Source of the DNA: a virus
IMG/VR virus record: IMGVR_UViG_3300045988_072973
DNA length: 37,115 nucleotides
Direction: 5' to 3' (one strand)
Both the position numbers and the translations under genes were made by a program. The first letter of the stretch is position 1. Each line of letters starts with the position of its first letter. Shown piece by piece: positions 20,152 through 37,115 of the stretch. The notes beneath the pieces were generated by a model that was given only the letters and a program-made list of their open reading frames with translations, searched no databases and was not told where the DNA came from.

Positions 20152-20608
20152 ATTTATTGCCAGTATATATCTTTCTTTTCAGTCTTTGAAATACTATCTC
20201 AAAGCTTGCTTCTGCCGCTTCTTTTGTTTTTGTTATATTATTCCTGCTTATGCGGATTGTTCTTGATATTGCTCTATATGACCTGTGGTTTAAATACCAT
20301 TCTCTCAGTACTGTTTTCTCGTCATCGTTTTTTATCATATCTATCAGTCTTCGTGCTTCTATTCTCATGATAATGAGATCTTCATGTTCTTGCATAACCA
20401 TTTCTTTGTATTTTTCTACGAGTATTATTCTGTCTGACAAGTCGTGCTGTATTCCGCCGGAAACCTTGTCTTTTTCGTATCGCTGCCCTTTTATTTGATA
20501 GATATTTGATTTACATTCCGCAAGCTCTCTTTGCACCGACAGGTACCGCCGGTGTTGATTATATATCGCTTGAAGATATTCCTGCCCGGTTTTAAAGTCT
20601 TTTATCAT
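20150..20608 (-). CDS. Putative late-gene regulator with a sigma-70 region-4-like HTH (RinA/ArpU/DUF1492-like)
   Basis: C-terminal EKTVLREWYLNHRSYRAISRTIRISRNNITKTKEAA. Last gene before the packaging-gene leader. Confidence 0.45.
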   Translation of the reverse strand: MIKDFKTGQEYLQAIYNQHRRYLSVQRELAECKSNIYQIKGQRYEKDKVSGGIQHDLSDRIILVEKYKEMVMQEHEDLIIMRIEARRLIDMIKNDDEKTVLREWYLNHRSYRAISRTIRISRNNITKTKEAAEASFEIVFQRLKRKIYTGNK

Positions 20609-23783: not shown

Positions 23784-24221
23784 CTATTTCCCTGTACTTC
23801 CCATACCGCCGGTCCTATCACCATCAGCGCTGTCATCATCCACCTTGTAATATTGATGGAAAATCCCCTGTGCAATCCTGTCTCCCATTTTTACGTTATA
23901 AGTTTTGCCTGAAATATTGGTGAGCGCTATCATGATATGCCCCTCGTTATCCGGATTGTTATAGTAGTCCGAATCAATGACGCCTACACCGTTTGCCAAG
24001 ATAAGCCCATATTTAATTGCAAGGCTTGACCTTGCATAAATCCCCAGCCACTCATAAGGTTTCATACATGCTTTTATGCCGGTGGGAATCACCTTTGTTT
24101 CACCTGGTGTGATTACAGCGTCAATGGCACTTTCAATATCATATCCCGCCGATTGTTTCGTTTTTCTTTTTGGCAAGTTTACATACTTATATCCTGTTAC
24201 TCTTTCAAATCCTCTTCTCAT
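23784..24221 (-). CDS. dut: dUTP diphosphatase
   Basis: SAGYDIES, GVGVIDSDYYN and GDRIAQGIF motifs. Confidence 0.9.
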   Translation of the reverse strand: MRRGFERVTGYKYVNLPKRKTKQSAGYDIESAIDAVITPGETKVIPTGIKACMKPYEWLGIYARSSLAIKYGLILANGVGVIDSDYYNNPDNEGHIMIALTNISGKTYNVKMGDRIAQGIFHQYYKVDDDSADGDRTGGMGSTGK

Positions 24222-24355
24222 TTTAGTTTCCTTTCTTTGTAAATCCGCTCTTCTTCATCACGTAGTTTTCTTGCCGCTTCATCGAGTTTAATTGCAGCAT
24301 ACATGATCATGCTGATAAATATCACTACACTCGCTACGTCAATTAATCTATCCAT
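24218..24355 (-). CDS. Small membrane protein, 45 aa (below the ORF-track cutoff)
   Basis: AAAGGAGGAcgaaATG start. Translation MDRLIDVASVVIFISMIMYAAIKLDEAARKLRDEEERIYKERKLK. Its stop overlaps the dut ATG (ATGA). Confidence 0.6.
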   Translation of the reverse strand: MDRLIDVASVVIFISMIMYAAIKLDEAARKLRDEEERIYKERKLK

Positions 24356-24366
24356 TTCGTCCTCCT

Positions 24367-24828
24367 TTAAAATGGGATTTCTCCCTGCTCGTATTCAGGC
24401 GGGGCATATTCTTTGCTTACTGTCCCCATGTCTTCAAATTTCACTGGTGCGGAAAATTGCGTTACAGATGTTCCGCCGGAAAAGCCTGCATTCATTGATT
24501 GTTGATTACTTCCAATCGGTTTTGCAATTACATTCGCTACTACTTCGGTAATATATCGTCTCTGCCCGTCCGGCGTGTCATATGATCTTGTAGAGTACCG
24601 CCCTTCGATAAATACATAGCTTCCTTTTGTGAGTTCATTTCCTACTGCTTCTGCCAGTTTCCCCCATGCGGTTACATTGACCCAATCAGTCAGATCTAAT
24701 ATATCCCCGTTCGCTTTTGTGATTCTCTTACTTACACCCACGGAAAATGACGCTACGGCTTTCCCTGTCTTCGTTGCTCTGATAATTGGATCTTTGGCAA
24801 GATTCCCTGTGATTTGTACTGTGTTCAT
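24367..24828 (-). CDS. ssb: Single-stranded DNA-binding protein
   Basis: OB-fold N-terminus MNTVQITGNLAKDPIIRATKTGKAVASFSVGV and an acidic C-terminal tip EYEQGEIPF. Confidence 0.9.
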   Translation of the reverse strand: MNTVQITGNLAKDPIIRATKTGKAVASFSVGVSKRITKANGDILDLTDWVNVTAWGKLAEAVGNELTKGSYVFIEGRYSTRSYDTPDGQRRYITEVVANVIAKPIGSNQQSMNAGFSGGTSVTQFSAPVKFEDMGTVSKEYAPPEYEQGEIPF

Positions 24829-24832
24829 CTTC

Positions 24833-25162
24833 TTACCTCTCTATGTATACTTCCGCATTCCTGCGTCCGAACTCTATCTCTTCATCGTATGAGTTTTTAA
24901 ATATGTCTATGCCTTCCATGCCGCCCCGGTCTTCCACGGTATACCAGTGTCCGTATATCTGTACTCTTGTTCCGAATGGCAGCCAGTTGCACGCTATGGT
25001 TCTGCCTTCTGTCGGGATGGTTCCCGATGCGGTATGTTCGTTAGGACATTCATATGGCGTATATACTGTGAGTTCTGTCGTTATCCATTCCGCTTTTATA
25101 ATTCCCGTTAGTCCGCATATAAATACCGCTGAAAATAAAACAATCCATAAGTTTCTAAACAT
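24833..25162 (-). CDS. 3D-domain (RlpA-like double-psi beta-barrel) protein with an N-terminal signal/anchor
   Basis: TVYTPYECPNEHTASGTIPTEGRTIACNWLPFGTRVQIYGHWYTVEDRGG. Confidence 0.7.
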   Translation of the reverse strand: MFRNLWIVLFSAVFICGLTGIIKAEWITTELTVYTPYECPNEHTASGTIPTEGRTIACNWLPFGTRVQIYGHWYTVEDRGGMEGIDIFKNSYDEEIEFGRRNAEVYIER

Positions 25163-25164
25163 TG

Positions 25165-25392
25165 TTATGCTCCTTTCTTTTTTAGCTTTCTGATTTCAAC
25201 ATCTCCAATGAGGATCTTTTCTATTAGCGTTCCGTTGGCTTTTGTCCAGTTCTTCCCAACCATTACCATTAAGCCTTTCCGCTCGTCTATGCAGAAGTGT
25301 TTTGATACTCTCTTCTCCGCTGGAAATAATATGCCGAATTCTTCTCCAGGCTTGATACCGAATATGTCTGTAAATGGTTTGATGTAGTTCAT
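25165..25392 (-). CDS. Hypothetical protein, 75 aa
   Basis: ORF track. Overlapping start and stop with its neighbours. Confidence 0.5.
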   Translation of the reverse strand: MNYIKPFTDIFGIKPGEEFGILFPAEKRVSKHFCIDERKGLMVMVGKNWTKANGTLIEKILIGDVEIRKLKKKGA

Positions 25393-25613
25393 TCTTCTAC
25401 CTCGTCTATTCTGTTAATTTCATGTATAAGCAGTGCCGCTGCTCTTTTCAGATTTGTTTTGCGTGATTTTACTCCCCGTATCTTTTTGCCGTGAATGATT
25501 GTTGTACCACCTATCAGGTACGCCGCCATGACGTTAAATAGTTCTGTATTGCTATATGGTTCCGCCGGAAATCCTCGGGATATTTTCAGTATTTCTTCTT
25601 CTGTGTCTGTCAT
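25389..25613 (-). CDS. Hypothetical protein, 74 aa
   Basis: ORF track. Overlapping start and stop with its neighbours. Confidence 0.5.
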   Translation of the reverse strand: MTDTEEEILKISRGFPAEPYSNTELFNVMAAYLIGGTTIIHGKKIRGVKSRKTNLKRAAALLIHEINRIDEVEE

Positions 25614-25903
25614 TGAATACCTCCTATATCTTTTATGTACTGTTCATATCCGTTTTTTATTCTTTTAAATTCAATCGCCATGACGATTTCCGGCGGACCA
25701 TCTTCATGGATCTTTTTAATAGCTGTTTTTATGATGACTATCGGACTGGTAATCAGTGTTATTATTGACGCCAATATTACTACGCCGGCTATGGTTACCA
25801 TTGCGGCAAGCGCTCTTCCCGCTCTGCACGGGATCATACTGTATACAAGCTTCTGCCATTTTCTATATCCTTTATATGCATTGATATAATCTATTTCGTC
25901 CAT
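25610..25903 (-). CDS. Membrane protein, 97 aa
   Basis: Central hydrophobic stretch ALAAMVTIAGVVILASIITLITSPIVII. Confidence 0.5.
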   Translation of the reverse strand: MDEIDYINAYKGYRKWQKLVYSMIPCRAGRALAAMVTIAGVVILASIITLITSPIVIIKTAIKKIHEDGPPEIVMAIEFKRIKNGYEQYIKDIGGIQ

Positions 25904-25912
25904 TTTTTCTCC

Positions 25913-26893
25913 TCAGAATAACGTTGAACTTTGTGATTCATATACAGCTCGTTCAAGGTTCTTTACCGCCTGTGCATAGTACGAATCTTTCAGTTCGATG
26001 CCAATGTACTTTCTTCCCATTTTTACGGATTGATAGCCTTCTGACCCGATGCCCATAAACGGTGACAGCACGATATCTTCTGGATTTGACCACAGCTCCA
26101 CCCCGCGGGCGATTACGTCCAATTGGAGCGGCGCGATGTGTCTTTCATCGTCTTTATCCCTCGCCTGCTGTCTGTTGAGTGTGTTTGACTGGTCGATATC
26201 CATCCATACGGGGGATGCGTATTTCCGCCATGTGTGATGAGAATACGTCGGATCAAGCCGGCTCATAGATATATTTTTGTGGATTTCACTGTTCTTCAGT
26301 GTGGCCGCTCTTTTCGGTGCATTTGGCTCGTTCTCTCCATAGAACCGTGTCAATCCGTCTTTGTGTGTGATGAGTTCCGGATTGTTCCCCGGTTTCCTCA
26401 TTGTAATCAGATAATCCGGCAGTCCGTTTCTACACATACTGCTGTCTTTCATAAGCTGTTTATGCATAAGTCCGATGGCTTTTGTTCTTGTTGCTTCTAT
26501 CAGCGGGTCTTTCCATATCGTTACTCTTGAGTGATAGATAAATCCGTATTCTTCAAAAAGCCGTATCATGTCTCCCGGAAAATCTTTCAGTCCGATGTAT
26601 CCGTCCCGTTCTTTCATCGCTGGTATGTCCATGCAGTGGATAGATATATTTCTTCCTGGTTTAAGGACTCTTGCTAATTCGCTTACAAGGAAACGGAAAT
26701 GTGTATAAAATTCATCGTCGTTTTTGCTGTTTCCCATGTCTTCCAGATAGTTGCTGTACGTGTACAGTGACGAAAACGGCGGAGAAAAGATGGAATAATC
26801 GATGGAATTATCTGGGATGCCTTTGATTACTTCGCAGCAGTCTCCGTGATAAATCGAGTACTTCTCTTGTATTTCCTGATGCAGTATATTCAT
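25913..26893 (-). CDS. Beta-class N4/N6 DNA methyltransferase
   Basis: The SPPF catalytic motif (IFSPPFSS) precedes the C-terminal FxGxG (SPFMGIGSEG). Start moved to ATG 26893 (AAGGAG + 7 nt, ATGA overlap with the SNF2 stop). Confidence 0.85.
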   Translation of the reverse strand: MNILHQEIQEKYSIYHGDCCEVIKGIPDNSIDYSIFSPPFSSLYTYSNYLEDMGNSKNDDEFYTHFRFLVSELARVLKPGRNISIHCMDIPAMKERDGYIGLKDFPGDMIRLFEEYGFIYHSRVTIWKDPLIEATRTKAIGLMHKQLMKDSSMCRNGLPDYLITMRKPGNNPELITHKDGLTRFYGENEPNAPKRAATLKNSEIHKNISMSRLDPTYSHHTWRKYASPVWMDIDQSNTLNRQQARDKDDERHIAPLQLDVIARGVELWSNPEDIVLSPFMGIGSEGYQSVKMGRKYIGIELKDSYYAQAVKNLERAVYESQSSTLF

Positions 26894-28275
26894 GCTGTTT
26901 CTCCTTTCAGCCATTCTGGCAGTCTCATTGCGGTATGCGGTTCATACCTGCTCTGCTGTCTTTTTGTGCTTCGTATATTGTTTTCTGTGATGTGCTGTGT
27001 AGCTTGTATCATGCCTTTCAGCATGCATTCAAAATCCTGCTCTTTTCTTCTGATGTTTGCGACAACGGCTCCCTCTGTATCCGCTACGACAAAATAGACA
27101 TTGACCTCGTGTGTCTGCCCGAACCTCCAGCACCGCCGGACCGCTTGATAATATTGTTCAAAACTGTCAGATAAGCCCACAAATATCATGTTGTGACAAT
27201 GCTGCCAGTTCATGCCAAATCCGCAGATAGACGGCTTGGATATAAATACACGGATTTTCCCGTCGCTGAAATCTTCCATCATCTGTGTTTTGTATTCCGC
27301 CTTGTCAGATCCTTTGACTTCTACCGCCCCCGGTATAGCCGCTTTCAGTGCTTCTCCTTCGGCGTTGAGATTGCACCATATAAGCCATGTGTCTTGTGAT
27401 TGATTGACCAGTTCGGCGGCAGCCGCCACTCTTTGCATGATGCTTTCCCGTCTTGCCTGTTGCCGTTCCTGCAATGTTGACGCTTCCACCGGAAACAGAA
27501 ATCCATCCATTGTTTCTGTCTGTACGGTCACCTGCTGGATGGTGAGCGGCGGCAATTCAAATTTTCTTCCGTCATATCCTAAGTCTGTCGGGTTTGTCAT
27601 CATGACCGCCCATGAAGATACCCATTCCCAAAAATCGGAGACGGCGTGTCCCTTTAGTCTCCATTTGCTCGTATTGCTCCCGTCGTGGATAAAGAACATG
27701 GCAAGCATTTCCAATTCTGTCATGATTCCTAAAAATTCGGAGTGGTTTCCTAATTCCATATAGTCATTCGGTGCCGGTGTGGCGGTGCATGCTAAACGGA
27801 ATGGAACGTCTCTTGATTTATTGATGAGTTCGGTACGGATTTTCCCCGTCTGTGATTTGAGAATAGATGACTCGTCCAAAACCAGTCCGTGAAAACGTCC
27901 GAAATCAAATTTATCCATTTTTTCATAGTTTGTAATATTGATCCCTGGTCTGACGTCTTCATTAGATGTTGCAACATGGACTGCCAGCCCCATTTTTTCT
28001 CCTTCTTTGACTGTCTGATGGTCTACAGCAAGCGGAGCCAATATCAGCACGTCTCCACCGACAACTGATGCCCATGCCAATTGCATTCTTGTCTTTCCTA
28101 ATCCTGTTCCCGCGAAGATGGCGCTCCTACCTTTTGCTACTGCCCATCTGACGATATCCACCTGGTAATCAAATAGGCTCGGAAATTTCTTCTTGATTGT
28201 TTCTACCGGCATCTCTATTCCGCATGTCTTGGCTGAAAATTCTTTTGATTTCAAAAATTCTATGTATGATTTCAT
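26890..28275 (-). CDS. SNF2-family helicase
   Basis: GTGLGKT (motif I), LVLDESS (motif II) and a helicase-C region ending ...QAVRRCWRFGQ. Start moved to ATG 28275 (MKSYIEF, ATGA overlap with the rep stop). Confidence 0.85.
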   Translation of the reverse strand: MKSYIEFLKSKEFSAKTCGIEMPVETIKKKFPSLFDYQVDIVRWAVAKGRSAIFAGTGLGKTRMQLAWASVVGGDVLILAPLAVDHQTVKEGEKMGLAVHVATSNEDVRPGINITNYEKMDKFDFGRFHGLVLDESSILKSQTGKIRTELINKSRDVPFRLACTATPAPNDYMELGNHSEFLGIMTELEMLAMFFIHDGSNTSKWRLKGHAVSDFWEWVSSWAVMMTNPTDLGYDGRKFELPPLTIQQVTVQTETMDGFLFPVEASTLQERQQARRESIMQRVAAAAELVNQSQDTWLIWCNLNAEGEALKAAIPGAVEVKGSDKAEYKTQMMEDFSDGKIRVFISKPSICGFGMNWQHCHNMIFVGLSDSFEQYYQAVRRCWRFGQTHEVNVYFVVADTEGAVVANIRRKEQDFECMLKGMIQATQHITENNIRSTKRQQSRYEPHTAMRLPEWLKGETA

Positions 28276-29108
28276 GTTCTTCTCCTTGGCTTGTCTCTTG
28301 CCTGTTTCACAGTACATTCTTTTTTCTTCTTCGGTACTCTTGACTGTGTAATCGGCCATACGTTCCTTTCGTTCACTTTGTACATTCTGTAAAACTGGTA
28401 AGGAAATCCGTCCGCTGTGTAGCCGCTTTCTACTTTGACTATCTGGTATCCCTTTCTCGGTGTCGGATTGTCTTTCCATTTCCGTGCGTAGATTGTTACC
28501 TTTTTCACATTTGGCTGCTTCAGATTTTTAGACGGCACCCATCGGATTTTTTGTACGGCGGTTTCATTTCGGATTTCTTCATCGGTTTCTTTTACAAAAT
28601 ATTCCGCAAGTCTCATGCAGTCTTCCGGGCTCCCGTCAAAATACCTGAATGATCTGTAATTGAATTTTGCCCATGGCCAGCAATCATTAATTTCTGATCT
28701 TGATATTCCGCAGTCATTAATCAAGACGTGATGATGGACTCGATGGCAGACATGTTCTGTGACGTAGATGTATTTCAGTTCCGCATTTTTCTTTTTATAT
28801 TTTTTGCGGAGGTCTCTGATAAATTTTCTTATTCTGTTTTTTGCTTCTTCTGCTGTCGGCTCCGGATTTGCATATGTCAAGTCAATACGCAGATCATCTC
28901 TTTTGAAATTCGTTGCTATGAGCCGATAGAGTTTTGTTTTCGCCCGGCGGGAGTTTCTTTTCTTGAGTCCCTTATCTGTTTTTTGAATATTGGGACCTCT
29001 GACTCTGTTACCCCCTAATCGATATGTGTGATATTTTTTCACTTCATAAATTCCGGGGGCTTGAAATATTTCTTTTCGGTACGGCACTTTTTTAAATTCC
29101 TGTTCCAA
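28272..29108 (-). CDS. HUH rolling-circle replication initiator (Rep)
   Basis: Motif I-like RIDLTY, HUH motif HRVHHHVLIN and motif III YxxK (AEYFVKE). The only starts are TTG 29108 (no SD) or GTG 29087. Confidence 0.65.
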   Translation of the reverse strand: MEQEFKKVPYRKEIFQAPGIYEVKKYHTYRLGGNRVRGPNIQKTDKGLKKRNSRRAKTKLYRLIATNFKRDDLRIDLTYANPEPTAEEAKNRIRKFIRDLRKKYKKKNAELKYIYVTEHVCHRVHHHVLINDCGISRSEINDCWPWAKFNYRSFRYFDGSPEDCMRLAEYFVKETDEEIRNETAVQKIRWVPSKNLKQPNVKKVTIYARKWKDNPTPRKGYQIVKVESGYTADGFPYQFYRMYKVNERNVWPITQSRVPKKKKECTVKQARDKPRRRT

Positions 29109-29133
29109 GAATTAACTACTATATCAAGTCCTC

Positions 29134-29158
29134 AAAAGGGGCTGAACTCCCCTTTTTT
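29134..29158. terminator. Bidirectional-type hairpin AAAAGGGG-ctgaact-CCCCTTTT(TT) between the antisense-RNA target and the rep start (attenuator candidate)
   Basis: Read directly. A-tract, GC stem and T-tract. Confidence 0.45.
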
Positions 29159-29159
29159 C

Positions 29160-29188
29160 TTGACATTTTGTGCCGTTTCACTTATAAT
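29160..29188 (+). promoter_or_regulatory. Perfect sigma-70-type promoter TTGACA-17 nt-TATAAT on the plus strand
   Basis: TTGACA 29160-29165 and TATAAT 29183-29188. Confidence 0.7.
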
Positions 29189-29194
29189 TTATGT

Positions 29195-29252
29195 AGTGGT
29201 TTGGTGCTACGGCACTTCCGCTCAGGGTTCTTCTCTGAGCGGTTTTATTTTT
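29195..29252 (+). ncRNA. Predicted ~55-nt antisense RNA (countertranscript) opposite the rep leader
   Basis: Bounded by the consensus promoter and the plus-strand terminator CCGCTCAG-ggttcttct-CTGAGCGG-TTTTATTTTT (29218-29252). Confidence 0.5.
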
Positions 29253-29466
29253 CTTCTTTTTCGTTGTTTTCTTCTGGCTCTTCTGTCTTTTCCCGATATA
29301 TACATCTCTGCAAAAAGTCCAGATAATGTTCGCATTTTCTACAGTGCTTCTGGCATATATTGGCTTTTTCTTTTCTGCAGCATACGGTCTGGAATACTTT
29401 CGATTTGCATACACGGCATTTCCTGTTGCGGTAAACTTCTACTGTTTTTCCGCCTGCTAATTTCAT
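29245..29466 (-). CDS. Cys-rich (zinc-ribbon-like) small protein, 73 aa
   Basis: MKLAGGKTVEVYRNRKCRVCKSKVFQTVCCRKEKANICQKHCRKCEH... The start has an ATGA overlap with the upstream stop. Confidence 0.55.
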   Translation of the reverse strand: MKLAGGKTVEVYRNRKCRVCKSKVFQTVCCRKEKANICQKHCRKCEHYLDFLQRCIYREKTEEPEENNEKEEK

Positions 29467-29690
29467 GACTGCCATTCTATGCTCACTCTTTCTTTTCTGT
29501 CCCCGCTTTGGACGATCCAATGTCCGCGGGGATTTTTTATTATCTTGAATTTTCGTCCGCCGGATGATGTATATGTGTTGTTTTCATCCATAAAAAATAC
29601 CGGCATTTCTTTCTGTGGTATCAGCCGTTCTTTATCCGGTGTTTCTTCTATCAGCCAGCCGATAGGATGCTTCCGGACGTTGTCCCACAA
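29463..29690 (-). CDS. Hypothetical protein. Protein-like frame with no ATG (possible TTG start, or a +1 continuation of the upstream ORF).
   Basis: WDNVRKHPIGWLIEETPDKERLIPQKEMPVFFMDENNTYTSSGGRKFKIIKNPRGHWIVQSG. No SD seen. Confidence 0.3.
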   Translation of the reverse strand: MWDNVRKHPIGWLIEETPDKERLIPQKEMPVFFMDENNTYTSSGGRKFKIIKNPRGHWIVQSGDRKERVSIEWQS

Positions 29691-29700
29691 AAGATATATG

Positions 29701-30108
29701 TCAGTACTTCGCCCACTTGGGCTTCTTCGGAATACATCCTGCTCTTTTCTTTTTGATTCTTCGTTCTTCTTCCGTTTTATAAAGTTCCTGCAGTTCCATT
29801 TCATGTTCTTTTCTCCATTCTTTAACCGCATGACAGTTAAGGTATGTTTTGATTTGTTCATCCATGTATTGTTTTCTCGTGCCGGAGAGTCCGTGTGCTT
29901 TGAAACGGTGCGTTTCGTATGACAGATGGATAAGATTATCCTCTTTGTCCGGTCCCCCGCTGCCCGCGTGTTTCGCATGGTGGACTTCCCCGCGCGACGG
30001 CGGCCACTCTCCGATAATAGACTGGTATGTTTCCGCCAGCTCCTCGTCCCTTTGTTTGACAAGCCGGCATAGTTTTCGGAATGCCGCTTCCGGTAGTTTG
30101 AATCTCAC
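29701..30108 (-). CDS. HNH-like nuclease-fold protein, 135 aa
   Basis: GEVHHAKH...NLIHLSYETHRFKAHG. Start moved to GTG 30108 (AAGGAG + 6 nt, GTGA overlap with the upstream stop). Confidence 0.5.
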   Translation of the reverse strand: MRFKLPEAAFRKLCRLVKQRDEELAETYQSIIGEWPPSRGEVHHAKHAGSGGPDKEDNLIHLSYETHRFKAHGLSGTRKQYMDEQIKTYLNCHAVKEWRKEHEMELQELYKTEEERRIKKKRAGCIPKKPKWAKY

Positions 30109-30275
30109 TTTTTTCTCCTTTTCTTTGAATATCTCCATGTTTCATCGGCTCGATAAACGTAGAATGAACAATCCCGATGGACAGGAACCATGTTTCCTTT
30201 TCCGTCTTTCGTCCACATCACATATTCGGCGGGAATTGCTTTCCCGCACTCGTGGCATATCAGTCTACGCTGCAT
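30105..30275 (-). CDS. Small zinc-ribbon-like protein, 56 aa (below the ORF-track cutoff)
   Basis: MQRRLICHECGKAIPAEYVMWTKDGKGNMVPVHRDCSFYVYRADETWRYSKKRRKK, with CxxC...HxxC. Confidence 0.5.
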   Translation of the reverse strand: MQRRLICHECGKAIPAEYVMWTKDGKGNMVPVHRDCSFYVYRADETWRYSKKRRKK

Positions 30276-30613
30276 ATTTCCCCCGTCGGTTTCATTTCAT
30301 AGATCTGCATATCCATTACATACGCAGCGGCATATTCTTGATTGCACCCCTGGCTTTTTTCCCAGTCTCCACAGAGTATCAGCGCATTGCATCGCTGCAG
30401 CACTTCTAAGCAGTCTTTCATCGGCTTATGCTGATGCTCCTTGTCATATGGTGCATATCCCCAATTGTGCAATGGGGAAAACAATGTTTTTTCTGGGTAT
30501 TTCGCTTGCAACATTTTTAAATATGTCTGTACTCTTTCTTTGTTCTTCTCATCGCCTCCGTAAGGGTGAGCGATGTAGAGTAACTGACCTTCTATATATT
30601 CTCTTTTTCCCAT
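30260..30613 (-). CDS. DUF4406 / nucleoside 2-deoxyribosyltransferase-like protein
   Basis: LLYIAHPYGGDEKNKERV...LFSPLHNW...ALILCGDWEKSQGC. Start at ATG 30613 (AAAGGAG + 7 nt). Confidence 0.45.
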   Translation of the reverse strand: MGKREYIEGQLLYIAHPYGGDEKNKERVQTYLKMLQAKYPEKTLFSPLHNWGYAPYDKEHQHKPMKDCLEVLQRCNALILCGDWEKSQGCNQEYAAAYVMDMQIYEMKPTGEICSVD

Positions 30614-30852
30614 TCCCGATCTCCTTTCTCCATTTTCGCAAGAAGGCACTTTTCCATCGTATCAATAACTCTTTTTCTGACTTCTGGATCACGGCTACTC
30701 ATCATTCCTATCAGTTCCGGCGGACACTGGTCACGGTATAGCTCGTTAATCGCAACGGCAACTGCTAATGAAAAGAATTTATCGTCGAAGCCTTTTACTG
30801 CGATATCGTATTGTTTCAGCTCGTTATCTGCTTGTATCTTCAGCTCGTACAT
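30592..30852 (-). CDS. Hypothetical protein, 86 aa
   Basis: ORF track. SD GAGGGA lies 8 nt upstream. Confidence 0.5.
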   Translation of the reverse strand: MYELKIQADNELKQYDIAVKGFDDKFFSLAVAVAINELYRDQCPPELIGMMSSRDPEVRKRVIDTMEKCLLAKMEKGDREWEKENI

Positions 30853-31108
30853 TCGGGATTTCCCTCACTTTGACAACGATTTCTTGTCCGGGCTGTAATG
30901 TTCCCGGGTCTTTGATATTGTTTTCTTTCGCGGTTCTCCAGACTAACTCTTGGAGATTTTCCCGCCCGCCGGAAACGCGGTCACATACATCCCATAAGGT
31001 TTCTCCCTTTGAAATGTTCACCGCGTATGAGATTGCCGGTGGCTCTGGCTGTACTGCGTACCCTGCGATACCGACAGTAATCATGAATGCGGTTAGGAAT
31101 TTATGCAT
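30824..31108 (-). CDS. Membrane-anchored LysM-domain protein (YneA-like architecture), 94 aa
   Basis: N-terminal hydrophobic helix plus a LysM motif (ISKGETLWDVCDRV...IKDPGTLQPGQEIVV). Start at ATG 31108 (GGAGAA + 6 nt). Confidence 0.65.
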   Translation of the reverse strand: MHKFLTAFMITVGIAGYAVQPEPPAISYAVNISKGETLWDVCDRVSGGRENLQELVWRTAKENNIKDPGTLQPGQEIVVKVREIPNVRAEDTSR

Positions 31109-31187
31109 GATAACTTCTCCGCGACCGCAATCATCATTGTCACGAAAACCGCCAGCCATAAATAATTCATCATTTTATCTACCATTT

Positions 31188-31430
31188 TTACGCCCTCATC
31201 TTTCTAACTTCCGCCCGGAAATTATATCCGCTTTGTTTCATCTTCCGTTTCTGCGCATTCTCTTCCATTTTCCGCCGGATAGCCGATTCCGCATCTTTCG
31301 GATCAAACAGATACGCCTTCCCTGATGGAATGAACGGTATCTCTCCTATCCTGCATAGTGCCCGTATTGTTGTAACCGGATATCCGGTTGTCTTACAGAA
31401 ATCTTTTGTATTCGTAAGCATACTTATCAC
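31188..31430 (-). CDS. HTH DNA-binding protein (excisionase/MerR-like), 80 aa
   Basis: TKDFCKTTGYPVTTIRALCRIGEIPFIPSGKAYLF. Confidence 0.6.
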   Translation of the reverse strand: MISMLTNTKDFCKTTGYPVTTIRALCRIGEIPFIPSGKAYLFDPKDAESAIRRKMEENAQKRKMKQSGYNFRAEVRKMRA

Positions 31431-31450
31431 CTCTCTCTTTTTTGTTTGAT

Positions 31451-31480
31451 TTGCTTAATACATCTCCCCCGCCCTATAAT
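31451..31480 (+). promoter_or_regulatory. Candidate promoter TTGCTT-18 nt-TATAAT for the plus-strand gene at 31506
   Basis: Read directly. Followed by the very strong SD AGGAAGGAGGTGA. Confidence 0.45.
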
Positions 31481-31505
31481 TTGAACAGGAAGGAGGTGAA
31501 CTAAT

Positions 31506-31718
31506 ATGAATCCAATTGAAATTAGGTTCAAGCTGAACGGTAAAGTGTCTGATATAACTCCTGAGATACATACCGAAAAACCAGGATACATGCATCATCG
31601 ATATTCGTATAAAGGTAAAATCATAGCTGAAACGATTATTGATAGTAGCAATACTTTTATTAAGACAGATTACAGATTCAGCCTCATTGACGGCATGATC
31701 GTCATTTTTGTTGAGTAG
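31506..31718 (+). CDS. Hypothetical protein, 70 aa, oriented against the early operon
   Basis: GGAGGTGA lies 7 nt before the ATG. Has its own candidate promoter. Confidence 0.6.
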   Translation: MNPIEIRFKLNGKVSDITPEIHTEKPGYMHHRYSYKGKIIAETIIDSSNTFIKTDYRFSLIDGMIVIFVE

Positions 31719-31914
31719 CCAATGCTATGCGTGGATTGTCGTTTTGGTCGAAAACGACAAGTCGATTAGAACACACAAGTATATGGTCTTTAAACTGGAT
31801 AATTTCACTATCGCCCAGTTTTAAAGATGGAGCTCCGTTGCCGCGGGGCTCTTTTTTTATAAACGCTCTTAACTCTTCTGCGTTTCCTTCTATCGTTACT
31901 TTCATCCTTTTCAC
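31702..31914 (-). CDS. Hypothetical protein, 70 aa
   Basis: ORF track. Its 3' end overlaps the convergent plus-strand gene by 17 nt. Confidence 0.5.
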   Translation of the reverse strand: MKRMKVTIEGNAEELRAFIKKEPRGNGAPSLKLGDSEIIQFKDHILVCSNRLVVFDQNDNPRIALATQQK

Positions 31915-31944
31915 CTCTCTTCCTTTCTCTCAAAAATATATTTT

Positions 31945-31961
31945 GTATCTTTTTAGGATAC
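31945..31961. promoter_or_regulatory. Operator-like site O3: GTATCTTTTTAGGATAC
   Basis: Same 17-bp family (GTrTC-N7-GAyAC) as the sites in the switch region. Confidence 0.5.
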
Positions 31962-32174
31962 TCTTTCGTTAAAAAAAATAGCGTCTATTTCTTCCGGCTT
32001 TAATTTATACCTATCTTTTATAAAAAGTATTTCTGCCTGTCGAAAATCTGCCCCACCGTTGATTTTTAGATTTAATCGAGATAGGCTTATCCCTAACGCA
32101 TTCGCTAAATCTTTTTGACTATCTCCATATTTCATCATTTCTGCCCTCATCAATGGTTTATTCATTTTTTTCAC
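31953..32174 (-). CDS. Cro-like XRE-family HTH protein, 73 aa
   Basis: SQKDLANALGISLSRLNLKINGG. First gene of the leftward operon, divergent from the repressor. Confidence 0.75.
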   Translation of the reverse strand: MKKMNKPLMRAEMMKYGDSQKDLANALGISLSRLNLKINGGADFRQAEILFIKDRYKLKPEEIDAIFFNERVS

Positions 32175-32188
32175 CTCACTTTCTTTTA

Positions 32189-32205
32189 GTGTCTTTTCAG
32201 GACAC
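32189..32205. promoter_or_regulatory. Operator-like site O2: GTGTCTTTTCAGGACAC
   Basis: Matches O1 at 13 of 17 positions. Lies just downstream of the leftward -10. Confidence 0.55.
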
Positions 32206-32209
32206 CTTG

Positions 32210-32238
32210 ATTGTATATCTGTTTTTGTATCTTGTCAA
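32210..32238 (-). promoter_or_regulatory. Leftward early (lytic) promoter TTGACA-17 nt-TACAAT
   Basis: Minus strand: TTGACA 32238-32233 and TACAAT 32215-32210. Confidence 0.65.
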
Positions 32239-32243
32239 GATAC
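32227..32243. promoter_or_regulatory. Operator-like site O1: perfect palindrome GTATCTTG-T-CAAGATAC
   Basis: Read directly. Overlaps the -35 of the leftward promoter. Confidence 0.65.
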
Positions 32244-32249
32244 TTTTTC

Positions 32250-32277
32250 TTGTTTTCAAAAAATTTTATGGTATAAT
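32250..32277 (+). promoter_or_regulatory. Rightward repressor promoter TTGTTT-16 nt-(TGg)TATAAT (extended -10)
   Basis: TTGTTT 32250-32255, TG 32269-32270 and TATAAT 32272-32277. Confidence 0.6.
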
Positions 32278-32291
32278 CAAGACACGAAAGG

Positions 32292-32750
32292 ATGGTGATG
32301 CATATGGAATTTAAAGATATCCTTTATACTTTAAGAAAAAAGAATAAGCTAACACAGCAGGAAGTTGCAGAATATGTAGGTTTGCAAAAAGCAGCTATAT
32401 ACAAATATGAACACGGCTTGCTTGTTAATCCCAAACGATCATTGATTTCAAAATTGGCTAAGTTATTTCAAGTTACCCCATCGTATATGATGGGATTAAC
32501 CGATGATGATAAGTCTGCTCATATGTCTCTTGGCACCTCCCTTACCAAAAAGGATGAAAAAGATATTCAAAAAAGGCTGTCCGATATTTTAAATGATATG
32601 GACGGTCAGGATTCTATTGCTATGTATAACGGCGGAGAACCGATGGATCCCGAAACACGGGAGTACATGAAAGCATCTCTTGAAAATGCTCTCCGCTTTG
32701 CAAAATTAAAAGCTAAAGAAAAGTTTACTCCAAAGAAACATCGTAAATAA
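32292..32750 (+). CDS. CI-like XRE-family repressor
   Basis: N-terminal HTH LTQQEVAEYVGLQKAAIYKYEHG plus a C-terminal domain. Alternative starts at 32298 and 32304. Confidence 0.8.
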   Translation: MVMHMEFKDILYTLRKKNKLTQQEVAEYVGLQKAAIYKYEHGLLVNPKRSLISKLAKLFQVTPSYMMGLTDDDKSAHMSLGTSLTKKDEKDIQKRLSDILNDMDGQDSIAMYNGGEPMDPETREYMKASLENALRFAKLKAKEKFTPKKHRK

Positions 32751-32761
32751 AGGATTACATC

Positions 32762-33205
32762 ATGAATATAAAAAAGTTCGCAAATGATATAGCGAATATA
32801 CATGACACAAGGAATCCGTTCCATATTGCTGCGGAAAATGACATCCATATCTTATATGAAGAGCTCGGGAAGAATTTGGGATATTTCAGTAATTTGTTTC
32901 GCATCAAAACAATACGAATAAATGATCATGCCGATCCGTTTCTCCAGCCGTTCATCTGTGCTCATGAACTCGGCCATGCGCTGCTTCATCCGCATGCCGG
33001 CACCCATGCTTTTAATAGAAATTCTTTTATTGCTAATTGCAAGATTGAAAAAGAAGCGAATCAGTTTGCCGTAGAATTGCTGTTCCCTGATGAATTGATA
33101 GCTTGTCATCCGGAAACGGATATTTATAATCTGGCGCGTACATTCGGTATTCCATATCAATTGGTTTATCTTAAGTCTATTTCTTACGGGGCACGTCATT
33201 TATAA
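32762..33205 (+). CDS. ImmA/IrrE-family zinc metalloprotease
   Basis: HEXXH motif (CAHELGHALLH). Lies immediately downstream of the repressor. Confidence 0.8.
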   Translation: MNIKKFANDIANIHDTRNPFHIAAENDIHILYEELGKNLGYFSNLFRIKTIRINDHADPFLQPFICAHELGHALLHPHAGTHAFNRNSFIANCKIEKEANQFAVELLFPDELIACHPETDIYNLARTFGIPYQLVYLKSISYGARHL

Positions 33206-33217
33206 AGGAGTCGAAAA

Positions 33218-33763
33218 ATGAAAAAAGTAGAATTGTTGATTACACTATTAATTACTATCATGTCTTTATTTACATTTAATATCGCTTATGCATCGGCTCC
33301 AAATGTCGCAGTTTTAATGGCTGGCGCAAGACAATCTACAAAAGATAAAAATGAATTGAAAGAGCTAAAAGCAAGGCAGCAGTTGATTGTGAATGCTATG
33401 CAAGGATCCATGATACCGGAAGAAAAAACAGCGCAGGTCGCTAATGATTATATTTTAGGCAATAAGATTGATATTTCGTTCAGTACAACAGATTTAATTA
33501 ATATCGGAAAACTCCTGAATGCCGACTACATCGTATATAGCCAATTTTATATTGATAAAATAAATGCCCCCGGATTATTTCATACAACAATGAAATTTAA
33601 AGGACAAACCGTATTAACAATTATAGATGTCCACTCCGGAGAATATAAATATAAAATTTCAGAAGATGTAAACAATGGAAAATTGAAAGATGTTTCGCGG
33701 TCTATGTTCATCGTGTATGACAAATCGATAGCAGATATTAAATTAAAAGGTTTAAAATTTTAA
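33218..33763 (+). CDS. Secreted protein, 181 aa (lysogeny-expressed moron candidate)
   Basis: Signal peptide MKKVELLITLLITIMSLFTFNIAYA/SAP. Sits in the repressor operon. Confidence 0.6.
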   Translation: MKKVELLITLLITIMSLFTFNIAYASAPNVAVLMAGARQSTKDKNELKELKARQQLIVNAMQGSMIPEEKTAQVANDYILGNKIDISFSTTDLINIGKLLNADYIVYSQFYIDKINAPGLFHTTMKFKGQTVLTIIDVHSGEYKYKISEDVNNGKLKDVSRSMFIVYDKSIADIKLKGLKF

Positions 33764-33942
33764 AACCGAACCATAATACCACTGGTAACAACGGAAAGAG
33801 GATGTGGTTGCGTGAAACAGTATAAAAGAGGATCCTTGATTTACGATAAGATCCATGACAGCTATCGTGCTTTTGTTATGATCAATAGCACGCTCATTTT
33901 GCGCGCGCAACCATTTTATTATAAATTATCTTTATACCACGC

Positions 33943-33969
33943 AATAAAAAAGAGGGCGGTTTCCCGCCC
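33943..33969 (-). terminator. Intrinsic terminator ending the late operon
   Basis: Minus strand reads GGGCGG-gaaa-CCGCCC-TCTTTTTTATT, just after the stop at 33972. Confidence 0.7.
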
Positions 33970-33971
33970 CG

Positions 33972-34454
33972 TTAATTACTTAATTTATCTACCAGCCAGC
34001 CCGTCGCTACTGCCCCTGCGATGTATGACCAGAGGTTTCTTTGCCGTTTTGCAAGCTTCACGTCATGCGTCAGGTCATCTATTTTCTTCGTCAATCTGTC
34101 TAAAGATATCTGTAGCTTCATCAAGTTCTCTTCGGCTTTCTGCAATGATATCTCTGCACTCCGCAATTGTTTCTGCGTTTCTATCAATTCTTTTCTGCAC
34201 TCTATCAGCTGATTCTGCAGCTCGGTCAACGCTTGAGATGCTTCTGTCGAGTTGCTCTCCAGCAGATTTAATTTGCTCTCCAGCAGATCTAACCGCATCT
34301 GCTGATTGCTTGCTGTACTCTTGAGCTTCTCGTACTGCGTCCTTTGCATCGTTACCGTTTCGGTTGCCACCGGTGCCTGTGCATATGAGATAGACAAGCA
34401 GGGCGCAGACAGCAACGACAACGCAAGCAATAGCGATAATTTTTTTCTTCTCAT
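33972..34454 (-). CDS. Coiled-coil envelope protein with an N-terminal signal peptide (Cys19) and a C-terminal hydrophobic segment. Candidate spanin-like lysis accessory, 160 aa.
   Basis: MRRKKLSLLLALSLLSAPC..., then Leu/Gln/Glu heptads, then ...LWSYIAGAVATGWLVDKLSN. The ATG is 8 nt after GGGGTG. Codon choice (cag, acg, ccg, ctg) matches the capsid gene better than the overlapping frame does. Confidence 0.55.
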   Translation of the reverse strand: MRRKKLSLLLALSLLSAPCLSISYAQAPVATETVTMQRTQYEKLKSTASNQQMRLDLLESKLNLLESNSTEASQALTELQNQLIECRKELIETQKQLRSAEISLQKAEENLMKLQISLDRLTKKIDDLTHDVKLAKRQRNLWSYIAGAVATGWLVDKLSN

Positions 34455-34459
34455 ACATT

Positions 34460-34984
34460 TTACACCCCATTTTCTAAATACCACTGCGCTTTTCCGCGGA
34501 GAATATCTCCGCCGGTCCCGATTTCGTCCTGATCACAGAGCTGCTCTAAATCCCATCGGCAGTCAGAATCCCCGCTGTACAGTCCATAGCCGTCGTCATT
34601 CGCCGCTTCGCCGTGTGTCATAAAATACTCACGATTAATCGGATTGTCGAAAACTTCGGCAATGACAGCAAACATCTTTGCCAGCGTTTCAATCTGCGCT
34701 TCCGTCGGCGGGTACTCGCCTAAGTCATTCGGACGTGCATTGTAGCAGCAGCATAAAGCAATAGCAATACTGCCTGTATTTCTGTGATATGTCGCCCTCG
34801 GTACCTCATCAAGCGGTCTTGTGTAGATGATTTCACCGTCTCCGTCAACGTTAAAATGATAATCGTTAAATGTTGTAAAATACCGCCCAGCCGACCAATG
34901 TCCGTAAGTCGTCGCTGGCCACGGAAACTGATAAAAATAGCTCCGTTTATCAATGAGCTCTTGTTTAAATTCGGCTATTGTCAT
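34460..34984 (-). CDS. Endolysin: single-domain N-acetylmuramoyl-L-alanine amidase (Amidase_2/PGRP-like)
   Basis: GHWSAGRY, HRNTGSIAIALC and MTHGEAAND contexts. 174 aa with no recognisable cell-wall-binding domain. Follows the holin. Confidence 0.75.
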   Translation of the reverse strand: MTIAEFKQELIDKRSYFYQFPWPATTYGHWSAGRYFTTFNDYHFNVDGDGEIIYTRPLDEVPRATYHRNTGSIAIALCCCYNARPNDLGEYPPTEAQIETLAKMFAVIAEVFDNPINREYFMTHGEAANDDGYGLYSGDSDCRWDLEQLCDQDEIGTGGDILRGKAQWYLENGV

Positions 34985-35002
34985 AAATACCTCCTATCTA
35001 AA

Positions 35003-35024
35003 ATAGCCGCTAAATAGCGGCTAT
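35003..35024 (-). promoter_or_regulatory. Hairpin ATAGCCGC-N6-GCGGCTAT between holin and endolysin
   Basis: Read directly. Overlaps the holin stop and is followed by TTTAGATAGGAGG (the endolysin SD). Confidence 0.4.
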
Positions 35025-35662
35025 TTCTTGAGCTTTGCAAATATATTGTTGTCAAGTAATGTTATCAACTTGTCTATGTGATGATTGCCTGCGTCTCTTA
35101 AATTCTCACAAATAGATAAAATTTCGTTGTAACAAATGTACCCGAACATGAATTTAAGCACCGGCCACGAAAGCGGAATCTCAATTGCTGATAAAACCGT
35201 ATCAATCTGCGAAGCAGTAAGAATGAGAATTGTGAAGAGAATAAATTTTGTCAGAAACCCCCACAGCATGATTTTCGATTTTAAGCGTTTTGCGCTGAAC
35301 GCAAGAACAATGCCGTATAGTTTTTCACGTGTCGTCAAGTAGTCGGGATCCATCCCTTTATCTACTAAGTATTGATATCCAATGGCCAGCCAGCGTGTAG
35401 AGATGTCAATAATAATCAACCAAAAATAAGCATTGAGTACCACGCCGTAGGAACTGTTGATGAACGATAGAATATACATCAACACAACACTTACGACCGT
35501 CTTCGATTCCCATTTGTCTAAGAGATTAATGCTTGTTCGGCAGAAATACTCCGCAAAATCAATCAAATCTAAGACAAAAACGCAGGTAACGAATCCGCCC
35601 CACATCACCGGTGGTTTGTTATACTTACGTATTTTCCTTTTCAAGTTTTGAAAAAAAGTCAT
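35021..35662 (-). CDS. Holin (Phage_holin_4_1 / TcdE-like C-terminal signature)
   Basis: Several TM segments. C-terminal YNEILSICENLRDAGN resembles the family's NE.LSI.EN...G motif. Confidence 0.7.
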   Translation of the reverse strand: MTFFQNLKRKIRKYNKPPVMWGGFVTCVFVLDLIDFAEYFCRTSINLLDKWESKTVVSVVLMYILSFINSSYGVVLNAYFWLIIIDISTRWLAIGYQYLVDKGMDPDYLTTREKLYGIVLAFSAKRLKSKIMLWGFLTKFILFTILILTASQIDTVLSAIEIPLSWPVLKFMFGYICYNEILSICENLRDAGNHHIDKLITLLDNNIFAKLKK

Positions 35663-35671
35663 GTTGTCCCC

Positions 35672-36190
35672 TCATTCATTCGTAAAATCAGAAATAAACT
35701 CAAACATACAACTCCCTGTTTTCAGCATGGAGTTCGGATACATTCCGATTTTACCGTCAGCCGTATACATGCGTGATAAATTGACAAAACCGCCAGAGAG
35801 CTCTACATACGCGCCGTATCCTTTTTCTTCTTTCGTCAGCACATCGCAGTACATCATCGGATACGTAAGTAATTCATGCCTTACGAACCTTGACGCCGGA
35901 TATCTATCTAAATATGCAGTAGCAATACCAATTGAACTGTTGTAAAAATTCAGCCATCTAAATTCTGTCGTATTTGTACCCGAATCAATGCATGCACATT
36001 GCACGGTAAACTTTACACGCCGATATCCCTCTTCTGTATAGCCTACAATTTCCGCAACGACGGTACCGATATGCGGCGTCATAAATCCAATATTCCCCAA
36101 AAATTTCTTATTTACGATTCCGGTTGCTCTGGCTTTCATTCTTTTGTCTACTATTCTGAATTTTGCACTTCCGTCTGTTATTTCCCGCAT
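35672..36190 (-). CDS. Hypothetical protein, 172 aa (downstream of the tail fibre)
   Basis: Start moved to ATG 36190 (AAGGAG + 8 nt). Confidence 0.55.
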   Translation of the reverse strand: MREITDGSAKFRIVDKRMKARATGIVNKKFLGNIGFMTPHIGTVVAEIVGYTEEGYRRVKFTVQCACIDSGTNTTEFRWLNFYNSSIGIATAYLDRYPASRFVRHELLTYPMMYCDVLTKEEKGYGAYVELSGGFVNLSRMYTADGKIGMYPNSMLKTGSCMFEFISDFTNE

Positions 36191-36204
36191 TTTGTTTACT
36201 CCTT

Positions 36205-37115
36205 TCAATCGTTTGTTAAATATACTAAACATGCAACAGATTCATGTCCTGGCGATGTAGTATATTCATCCGTATAACTGAGATATAGTTTACCGTCTGT
36301 ATTTATTGTCAATCGTACAGCTTTACCGTTGCTGTTGTTTATAGGGGCATAAAATTCAAGATTTATAAATGATTTTGGTAGCCCCGATGCAATTTCAATG
36401 AGACCTTCTTTTGCACTTTTCATTCGTACAAAAAGATGCACTATGTTTTTTATTTTTACACACGATAAATTTTCGATGTACTGTGAGTCTATAGTCGCAT
36501 TAATTGTTTCCATCTTTCCGTAATTATTGAGTTTTTCATCTACATATTCTTTTGCGGTTACCGTTTTGACCGTCCATTTCACGCTTCCGTCATTAACTTC
36601 TACCCCCCCCGATATAGTTGACAAATTAGGTTCGGTGGCTGCTGTTGTGCCTGCTTGCGTGCACTCAAGATATGCCCATGACGGAAGTTTCGATGAGTAA
36701 ACGATATCGCCGACTTTATATGCTTTCATGCGTTGTAGCCTATTTGTAAATGACGCTGTTTCTTCTAAGGCTGCCTGATTCGCCTTTTTGTCTACTTTTG
36801 TTGATACCGCAGCTAAATCCGATTGATTTGCTTTCTTGCCAATTTGATTAGAGACCGTTGTTGCAAAATTCGGGTCATTACCGAGTGCTGTCGCTAATTC
36901 ATTAAGCGTATCAAGAGTTTCCGGTGCGGCTCCGACAAGTCCGGATACTGCACTTTGTACAAATTCTGTATTCGCAATTGTTTTAGAATTGTCACCTGTC
37001 GGTGCCGTTGGCGCTGCACTCGTACCCGTTACCGCTAATGACTTTGCTTTGACCGTATCAGCATTGACTAAGTTAAGGTCACTCGTACCCGTTACCGCTA
37101 ATGACTTTGCTTTGA
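36205..37115 (-). CDS. Tail fibre protein, C-terminal part (the N-terminus is at 236-1 across the circular junction)
   Basis: The frame is open from the window end. ...AAPETLDTLNELATALGNDPNFATTVSNQIGKKANQSDLAAVSTKVDKKANQ... is typical of phage fibre shafts. The ORF-track M at 36729 is internal. Confidence 0.8.
   Translation of the reverse strand, partial: KAKSLAVTGTSDLNLVNADTVKAKSLAVTGTSAAPTAPTGDNSKTIANTEFVQSAVSGLVGAAPETLDTLNELATALGNDPNFATTVSNQIGKKANQSDLAAVSTKVDKKANQAALEETASFTNRLQRMKAYKVGDIVYSSKLPSWAYLECTQAGTTAATEPNLSTISGGVEVNDGSVKWTVKTVTAKEYVDEKLNNYGKMETINATIDSQYIENLSCVKIKNIVHLFVRMKSAKEGLIEIASGLPKSFINLEFYAPINNSNGKAVRLTINTDGKLYLSYTDEYTTSPGHESVACLVYLTND
37018..37115. repeat. 35-nt perfect direct repeat at 63-nt (21-codon) spacing inside the tail-fibre gene
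   Basis: actcgtacccgttaccgctaatgactttgctttga occurs at 37018-37052 and 37081-37115 (equivalent to 21-55). Both copies encode KAKSLAVTGTS. Confidence 0.85.

Follow-up and report, generated by a model that had tools for sequence, protein, structure and literature searches.

Predicted antisense control of a rolling-circle-type initiator gene in temperate tailed phages

Antisense-RNA control of initiator synthesis is textbook knowledge for plasmids. Among the plasmid countertranscripts, RNAII of pMV158 is ~50 nt long and consists of a terminator hairpin preceded by a 5' tail that is single-stranded. In temperate phages, the lambda OOP RNA is a short, terminated antisense RNA whose promoter lies beside the replication initiator gene and whose target is the upstream cII message. 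In pC194 and in pUB110, antisense RNAs are counter-transcribed in the 5' region of rep and have been proposed to block translation (PMC5703833), and CTTGATA, the conserved nick site of Rep_1/pC194 origins, forms the nick core of a pC194-type origin upstream of rep (PMC10378824). RNAII of pMV158 inhibits translation of an HUH rep gene in a polycistronic mRNA, RNAI of pSK41 binds at ~100 nt upstream from the translation-initiation region (TIR) and is proposed to induce a stem-loop that sequesters the ribosome-binding site, and the attenuators of pT181 and pIP501 require a pre-emptor and a true U-rich terminator (PMC5703833). Here we analyze a related arrangement in a 37,115-nt stretch of viral DNA (IMG/VR virus record IMGVR_UViG_3300045988_072973; hereafter, the window), in which positions 29080-29252 are best explained as the control region of a portable replication cassette, made up of a small RNA (sRNA) gene, an origin and rep, in a temperate tailed phage. 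The layout of this region appears to match that of pC194/pUB110 and its inferred mechanism that of pSK41 RNAI, whereas the defining features of a pT181/pIP501 attenuator seem to be absent.

The sRNA gene lies on the plus strand, opposite the non-coding region upstream of rep, which encodes an HUH rolling-circle-type initiator and is read from the minus strand. A first-pass annotation of the window had proposed a countertranscript gene here, and our analysis likewise predicts a discrete, structured RNA at this place. The promoter it named is a 12/12 match to the consensus, with the -35 hexamer TTGACA at 29160-29165 (plus strand), a 17-nt spacer and the -10 hexamer TATAAT at 29183-29188 (plus strand). 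Using simple custom scripts for promoter and terminator scans, we found this to be the best match, and the only one of 12/12, within 24000-37115. The promoter had been presented as a rarity, which it is (0.01 expected from shuffles), but it is not unique, as the exact pattern occurs twice in the window. In 25 close relatives with 94-98% identity to the window, the -35 is invariant and the -10 is changed in only two (to TATGAT), and TTGAC-type hexamers occupy the same position in distant lineages.

The promoter is followed ~30 nt downstream by an intrinsic terminator (29218-29252, plus strand), with a stem-loop of CCGCTCAGGG-TTCTT-CTCTGAGCGG at 29218-29242 that has ten pairs, seven of them G-C, and then a U-tract, TTTTATTTTT, at 29243-29252. 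The claim that it acts on one strand only is borne out, because the minus strand carries an A-run before the hairpin and no T-run after it; read in the rep sense, the element is not a terminator. With transcription starting 7 nt past the -10 and ending within the U-tract, the predicted RNA is ~55-58 nt long (29195-29252, plus strand) and would pair with the rep transcript at -108 to -165 relative to the GTG at 29087. It folds into an 8-nt 5' tail, a small hairpin (GGUGC-UACG-GCACU; 29203-29216, plus strand) with the sequence UACGGCACUU on its 3' arm, and the terminator, at -25 kcal/mol (z = -6.2). We rejected a hidden open reading frame (ORF) in this region, as the RNA is just 58 nt and the region shows no coding signal. 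No Rfam family reached the gathering score anywhere in the window; at E up to 10, positions 28900-29600 gave chance-level matches only, and 20 related loci gave one tRNA and nothing else. ARAGORN found no tRNA or tmRNA.

The strand on which the terminator works can be read from the substitutions it has tolerated. In the 25 close relatives, the stem has changed from T:A to T:G, from A:T to G:T, and from G:T to A:T or G:C, all of which preserve pairing on the plus strand, while the same substitutions on the minus strand amount to C·A mismatches. Across 26 lineages of related loci, with hairpins selected symmetrically for the two strands, the mean stability was -17.7 kcal/mol on the sRNA strand versus -14.5 kcal/mol on the sense strand, and the more stable strand was that of the sRNA in 20 lineages and the sense strand in 5 (p = 0.0014). 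G·U pairs made up 40/326 of the stem pairs on the sRNA strand and 11/284 on the sense strand. In a same-register subfamily alignment of eight sequences, RNAalifold returned an 11-pair helix with no broken pair and four compensatory double changes. Judged by these sequence comparisons, the terminator stem is selected at the RNA level on the plus strand.

The same arrangement recurs widely upstream of related rep genes. We assembled 186 loci encoding Rep relatives from IMG/VR and GTDB genomes, with Dialister, Megasphaera, Lachnospiraceae, Acetobacterium and Oscillospiraceae among the named hosts, and clustered their rep-upstream DNA into 63 lineages with one representative each. These relatives were found at the protein level only; a blastn search of 28272-30200 against 50,697 phage records gave zero matches. 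An antisense sigma-70-type promoter followed 16-77 nt later by a hairpin and T-run was found in 37/63 lineages, 26 of these promoters matching the consensus at 10/12 or better, versus sense-strand promoter-terminator hits in only 2/63. Measured upstream from the rep start, the -35 is 58-110 nt away in most lineages (up to ~150 in three), and the terminator stems are unrelated in sequence between lineages despite their retained position. On the antisense strand, the first 300 nt upstream of rep held 29 strong promoters in 18.9 kb, 26 of them with a terminator, compared with 111 strong promoters in 647 kb in the rest of the same loci, 19 of them with a terminator, which amounts to a ~47-fold enrichment of promoter-terminator pairs upstream of rep. 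Some of the 19 pairs in the flanks may be further prophage sRNA genes. Neighboring genes are poorly retained (the ORF upstream of rep in 4/63 lineages, an SNF2 helicase gene in 2/63), and the sRNA can thus be said to travel with rep and the origin motif.

Cultured temperate phages share this layout: phiSM101 and PhiS63 of C. perfringens, Enterocloster phage Saumur and Latilactobacillus phage TMW 1.1381 P1. The corresponding RNAs are predicted at ~24458-24528 (plus strand) in phiSM101 (NC_008265.1), ~27489-27406 (minus strand) in PhiS63 (NC_017978.1), ~44041-44119 (plus strand) in Saumur (ON453901.1) and ~23663-23601 (minus strand) in TMW 1.1381 P1 (OQ240258.1). In the lineages L188 (phiSM101, NC_008265.1, ~24423-24528), L189, L190 and L191, the motif, antisense promoter and terminator lie upstream of an annotated 'replication initiation protein'; the RNA gene is not annotated at the site in any of the four, and in Saumur the region carries annotated small antisense ORFs. 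Relatives of phiSM101 are listed in PLSDB as 'plasmids', and phiSM101 itself has been described as episomal (PMC3442830). We are highly confident that the sRNA gene is real and functional. In pMV158, RNAII is accompanied by a CopG repressor whose gene lies just upstream, and the initiator belongs to the Rep_2 family; a CopG-like gene was not detected in family searches here.

How the sRNA might act on rep is suggested by a set of complementary segments in the rep leader. The element X1 (GUGCCGUAGCAC; 29204-29215, minus strand; inverted repeat I4) lies inside the sRNA target. X* (GUGAAACGGCAC; 29170-29181, minus strand), which is complementary to the promoter spacer of the sRNA, has two possible partners, X1 and the rep start region, and so is a candidate anti-TIR element. 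X2 (AAGUGCCGUA; 29080-29089, minus strand; repeat D4) is the rep TIR itself, with the GTG start (29087-29085) inside it, and repeats the X1 core exactly. A 10-nt exact repeat, TACGGCACTT, stands at 29080 and 29208, TACGGCAC has three copies window-wide, two of them at the rep start (X2) and in the sRNA, and in the window the predicted pairing with the rep start is of ACGGCAC with GUGCCGU. The promoter spacer and a segment 12-25 nt into the sRNA form an inverted repeat, and they do so with a different sequence in every lineage. The complementarity of X1 and X* is lineage-specific, with a mean z of -3.0 and 21/28 lineages at rank <=0.1 in permutation tests, which were run across related lineages and so overstate independence. 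Compensatory changes between X1 and X* separate L074 from L075 (one of them a U·G valid on the rep strand only) and L055 from L061. In many lineages X* is also complementary to the rep Shine-Dalgarno (SD) sequence or start codon, and in a further set the sRNA itself is; the pairing covers the rep SD in L104, L108, L110 and L117, and where the Rep N-terminus is altered to MHR.., in L138 and L148, X* has changed along with it and matches AUGCACAG.

Predicted folds of the leader are compatible with a switch between two states. Window transcripts cut before the TIR fold as X1:X*, and the full window leader is near iso-energetic between an X1:X* state (-54.2 kcal/mol) and a state in which X* pairs with the start codon (-55.3 kcal/mol). 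Blocking the sRNA target lowered the predicted accessibility of the TIR in 21/28 lineages (p = 0.025).

We infer transcription of the sRNA, repression of rep by it and action of the switch at the level of translation. That the sRNA is a negative regulator of rep is likely. As to the mechanism, we lean, though only somewhat, towards one in which a constitutive countertranscript binds X1, and the freed X* or the sRNA itself occludes the start region, so that Rep translation falls. A strong, probably constitutive sigma-A-type promoter on the plus strand would drive an RNA of ~58 nt, with its 5' tail, small hairpin and intrinsic terminator, that matches the rep transcript along its whole length as an exact complement, ~108-165 nt ahead of the start, the latter transcript presumably being read-through from the early operon. 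In the nascent leader, X1:X* pairing would keep the rep SD and GTG start accessible. With the sRNA on X1, X* would be freed to pair with X2 over the start codon, and in the window UACGGCACUU of the sRNA could also pair with the rep start directly. Rep translation would then be blocked, perhaps with contributions from RNase III, cutting the duplex, and from interference by convergent transcription. This resembles pSK41 RNAI in its far-upstream target and in the alternative pairing predicted here over the start codon. The staphylococcal plasmid pSK41, however, encodes a RepA_N theta initiator rather than an HUH protein of family PF23343 in a tailed prophage, and the two systems have no sequence similarity. 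The candidate anti-TIR element at our locus, unlike that of pSK41, is the complement of the promoter spacer of the sRNA, and target and TIR are separated by a putative origin.

Several observations weigh against this account. The complementarity of X* to the TIR and of the sRNA to the TIR is only moderately enriched (11/28 lineages each at rank <=0.1), and the equilibrium effect of target blocking on TIR accessibility is small, from 0.39 to 0.36. In the window, the minimum free energy (MFE) structure already pairs the start codon, with X*, when the sRNA is left out, and the switch model therefore depends on control that is kinetic and co-transcriptional. As for the X motif, its three copies could be repeats bound by a protein. 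At the level of the gene itself, 26/63 lineages fall short of our thresholds for a promoter plus terminator, with weaker versions visible by eye in some of the sub-threshold lineages, and several of the most distant, GC-rich lineages are without a leader altogether. Fixed-column covariation counts and RNAalifold on mixed-subfamily MAFFT alignments gave no clear signal, with 61% of terminator cells paired and shuffles equally good, because the alignment register of the stems differs by one or two columns from group to group.

Between the sRNA target and the rep start lies the hairpin reported in the first-pass annotation, which we found at 29134-29156 and refer to as H0 (AAAAGGGG-N7-CCCCTTTT, arms at 29134-29141 and 29149-29156). 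Its position is conserved, with a GC hairpin just upstream of the sRNA -35 in most lineages. H0 directly adjoins an invariant CTTGATATAG..TTAA motif, part of a nick-site-like sequence, CTTGATATAGTAGTTAA (29112-29128, minus strand), that occurs as a single copy in the window and whose core, CTTGATA, stands at 29128-29122 on the rep strand, directly 3' of H0. ATATCAAG is invariant in 21 Negativicutes-type sequences, and a CTTGWT..TATTAAC consensus is present in most other lineages. The 46 non-coding nucleotides at 29088-29133, comprising the rep SD region and the nick-like motif, contain 0 variable sites in the 25 close relatives, versus 9% variable sites in the rep 5' coding region and 20% in the upstream ORF. 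The motif also matches the phiX174 origin, CAACTTG^ATATTAATAAC.

Because the adjacent motif is invariant and CTTGATA is the pC194-type nick core, we read H0 together with CTTGATA..TTAA as most likely, on this analysis, a double-strand origin nicked by Rep, and we infer a nick site within the motif. H0 is probably, alternatively or additionally, a bidirectional insulator rather than a regulated attenuator. The order of sRNA, putative double-strand origin and rep is that of pC194/pUB110. Differences from those plasmids are that Rep is not a Rep_1 protein (PF01446) in 21/21 members, that the sRNA does not lie directly over the TIR, and that the element is a tailed temperate phage of ~40 kb. Taken with the C before it, the sRNA -35 (CTTGACA, plus strand) nearly repeats, in inverted orientation, the nick-like core (CTTGATA, minus strand); both lie within 29122-29165, on either side of H0, and the CAAG/CTTG pairing around H0 is invariant in 21/21 Negativicutes-type sequences. 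As CTTGACA mirrors CTTGATA across H0, origin-bound Rep might touch the sRNA promoter.

The first-pass annotation had interpreted H0 differently, as a Rho-independent terminator before rep that forms at 29134-29158 once the sRNA is bound, in the manner of pT181, pIP501 and pAMbeta1. There is plasmid precedent for such attenuation, and the predicted layout of the locus shares with pT181 (RNAI/RNAII) and pIP501 (RNAIII) a countertranscript, made from a constitutive promoter, against the rep leader and a hairpin between target and rep. The conservation of that hairpin in nearly all lineages, its slightly greater mean stability on the rep strand (-9.7 vs -8.8; 36 vs 22 of 71 sequences) and the 3-4 U that follow it would all suit an attenuator. 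The tail on the rep strand, UUUUGAGG, is nevertheless U-poor, and at least five U in the 8 nt after the stem occur on the rep strand in 1/26 lineages versus 15/26 on the opposite strand. When the window leader was folded with and without its sRNA target blocked, as the annotation had suggested, H0 was present in every predicted state, whether free, co-transcriptional or target-blocked, and free, truncated and constrained folding revealed no pre-emptor for it. In two relatives, C29152T leaves a G·U on the plus strand and a C·A on the rep strand, and H0 abuts the nick-like motif. Compared with pT181/pIP501, therefore, the hairpin is constitutive in predicted folds and its sense U-tract is poor; those plasmids moreover use Rep_trans and pIP501 theta-replication initiators, respectively, rather than a PF23343 HUH Rep. 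We consider attenuation of this kind unlikely, and a translational switch that hides the rep start region fits the data better than regulated attenuation at H0.

Other roles can be envisaged for the promoter and its repeats. Some HUH Rep systems, those of CRESS-DNA viruses among them, typically have iterons beside the nick hairpin, and the X motif (GTGCCGT in spacer, sRNA region and rep start) might likewise be bound by Rep or a repressor, with the sRNA acting through RNase III cleavage of the polycistronic early mRNA and transcription collision. Lineage-specific repeats are what co-evolution with a DNA-binding protein would give, and the strand asymmetry of X1:X* is weak overall (-13.2 sense vs -12.3 antisense). 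Mismatches between the copies, however, are G·U on the rep-sense RNA only in L108, L117, L138, L148, L182 and L075, and the third copy tracks N-terminal codon changes and always overlaps the SD or start codon at a variable distance, which suits RNA occlusion and not a DNA operator because there is no rep promoter there. We consider iterons quite unlikely. Very unlikely, in our view, is a direct service of the promoter to DNA replication, be it supercoiling or strand opening for Rep nicking, or an RNA that primes the complementary strand in the manner of a single-strand origin or the M13 minus-strand origin. The -35 does lie within 35 bp of the nick-like motif, the CTTGACA/CTTGATA inverted repeat around H0 is invariant, the X1:X* and CAAG/CTTG intrastrand pairs would also form in a displaced rep-sense single strand, and the RNA has the right polarity for priming on that strand. 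Yet the terminator, under selection at the RNA level, sets the transcript free, the reverse of what priming requires, and the -10 would be left unpaired in a loop of the folded single strand. A 40-kb tailed phage with helicase genes has no obvious need for a single-strand origin, and why X* is complementary to the rep SD or start would go unexplained. The lambda OOP RNA is similarly located, between cII and the replication gene O, and the upstream ORF (29245-29520) has its stop codon overlapped by the 3' end of the sRNA, through which the RNA could act on that gene. That overlap is only ~8 nt, though, and the upstream gene, unlike in the lambda case, is not conserved (4/63 lineages, versus sRNA with rep in 37/63), the sRNA being linked to rep and the origin instead; an OOP-like role is accordingly highly improbable. 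Consensus scans alone are not evidence, and the window has its second 12/12 site, but the positional enrichment, the structure-preserving substitutions, the invariant -35 and the near-invariant -10 leave a functionless chance pairing of promoter-like and terminator-like sequences with a negligible probability. The comparative data effectively exclude both the OOP-like role and chance.

The rep gene (28272-29087, minus strand) encodes a protein of 271 aa that matches PF23343 (E = 1e-11) and phrog_3584 (E = 3.5e-46). Its HHH and YxxK motifs are invariant or nearly so among homologues, and an AF2 model (pLDDT 82) has HUH Rep nucleases as its best fold matches, with weak E-values. A family search of 21 Rep members returned PF23343 in 21/21, plus weak matches to other HUH families, and no match to Rep_1 (PF01446) or Phage_GPA (PF05840) at E up to 1. 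A PDB sequence search with Rep gave a single weak CRESS-type Rep match (E = 0.3), and NCBIfam had no hits for Rep or its neighbors. The ORF was first listed as 28272-29108, and the gene had been said to have a TTG or GTG start and no clear SD. The start is GTG 29087, not TTG 29108, because 20/20 aligned homologues begin with MPY or MAY at the matching residue, and an SD-like AGGA (29098-29101, minus strand) can be read in the sequence 10 nt before it, so that the earlier remark on the SD holds only in part. GTG and TTG starts are frequent across lineages of the Rep family, a pattern consistent with selection for low or regulated translation initiation.

Our scan found no sense-strand promoter in the leader between the sRNA gene and rep, and rep is therefore presumably read through from the upstream early operon. 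This minus-strand operon begins at a promoter at 32238-32210, divergent from the genes for a cI-like repressor and an ImmA-like protease. Upstream is a Cys-rich ORF of 91 aa (29245-29520, minus strand) without a family match, whose TAA stop (29247-29245) lies inside the sRNA U-tract; we count it as context and not as a component of the cassette. Genes for an SNF2-like helicase and a DNA methylase follow rep.

We found no description of antisense control of rolling-circle-type initiators in tailed phages in the literature searched. The system is a widespread, Rfam-absent addition to a known type of countertranscript control in an unusual host element, tailed temperate phages, and not a new kind of control. 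If the model is true, many temperate phages, including those of Dialister, Megasphaera, Lachnospiraceae, Acetobacterium, Clostridium perfringens (phiSM101, PhiS63), Enterocloster and Latilactobacillus, have a plasmid-style replication brake. This would explain the silence of an HUH nickase gene and its origin in lysogens as well as the way in which copy number might be set in episomal prophages such as phiSM101, and it would suggest an RNA-based layer of phage-phage exclusion. Annotators would gain a non-coding module (sRNA, hairpin and CTTGWT..TATTAAC) that marks a replication origin.

A more speculative extension, which we put forward tentatively and regard as doubtful, is that sRNA, origin and rep together make up a portable replicon cassette of plasmid-like character, through which the tailed temperate phages of gut Firmicutes would fall into incompatibility groups based on RNA. 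A resident prophage, whether integrated or, like phiSM101, episomal, would then silence its own Rep synthesis with its sRNA, which would also act in trans on incoming phages with the same X and terminator sequences, providing superinfection immunity at the level of replication, separate from CI-type repressors. The rapid, structure-preserving turnover of stems and X elements would mark escape into new specificity groups, and through the CTTGACA/CTTGATA mirror, origin-bound Rep could feed back on sRNA synthesis.

Some further features of the window can be noted. The second 12/12 TTGACA-17-TATAAT pattern lies on the minus strand at 20097-20069, that is, on the operon strand, between ORFs 20150-20608 and 19615-19965, and is probably a real internal phage promoter. 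In the switch region (32160-32300), the early promoter of the minus strand (11/12) has its -35 overlapped by the palindrome GTATCTTGTCAAGATAC (32227-32243), which sits between a cro-like gene (31953-32174, minus strand) and the cI-like repressor and ImmA-like metalloprotease genes (32292-33205, plus strand). We searched for an operator common to this region and the sRNA promoter, and as the sole match was the -35 region itself, there is no sign of repressor control of the sRNA. A second terminator-like hairpin, found on the plus strand only (29501-29537; CCCCGC..GCGGGG plus T6), lies inside minus-strand ORFs; a weak RybB-like Rfam match (E = 0.54) was dismissed as merely this hairpin. No plus-strand promoter was seen between 29253 and 29500. 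Some relatives carry C29506T with G29526A, which exchanges a C-G for a T-A pair, or C29502T, which leaves a U·G on the plus strand only, and the hairpin may be a back-up stop for sRNA read-through.

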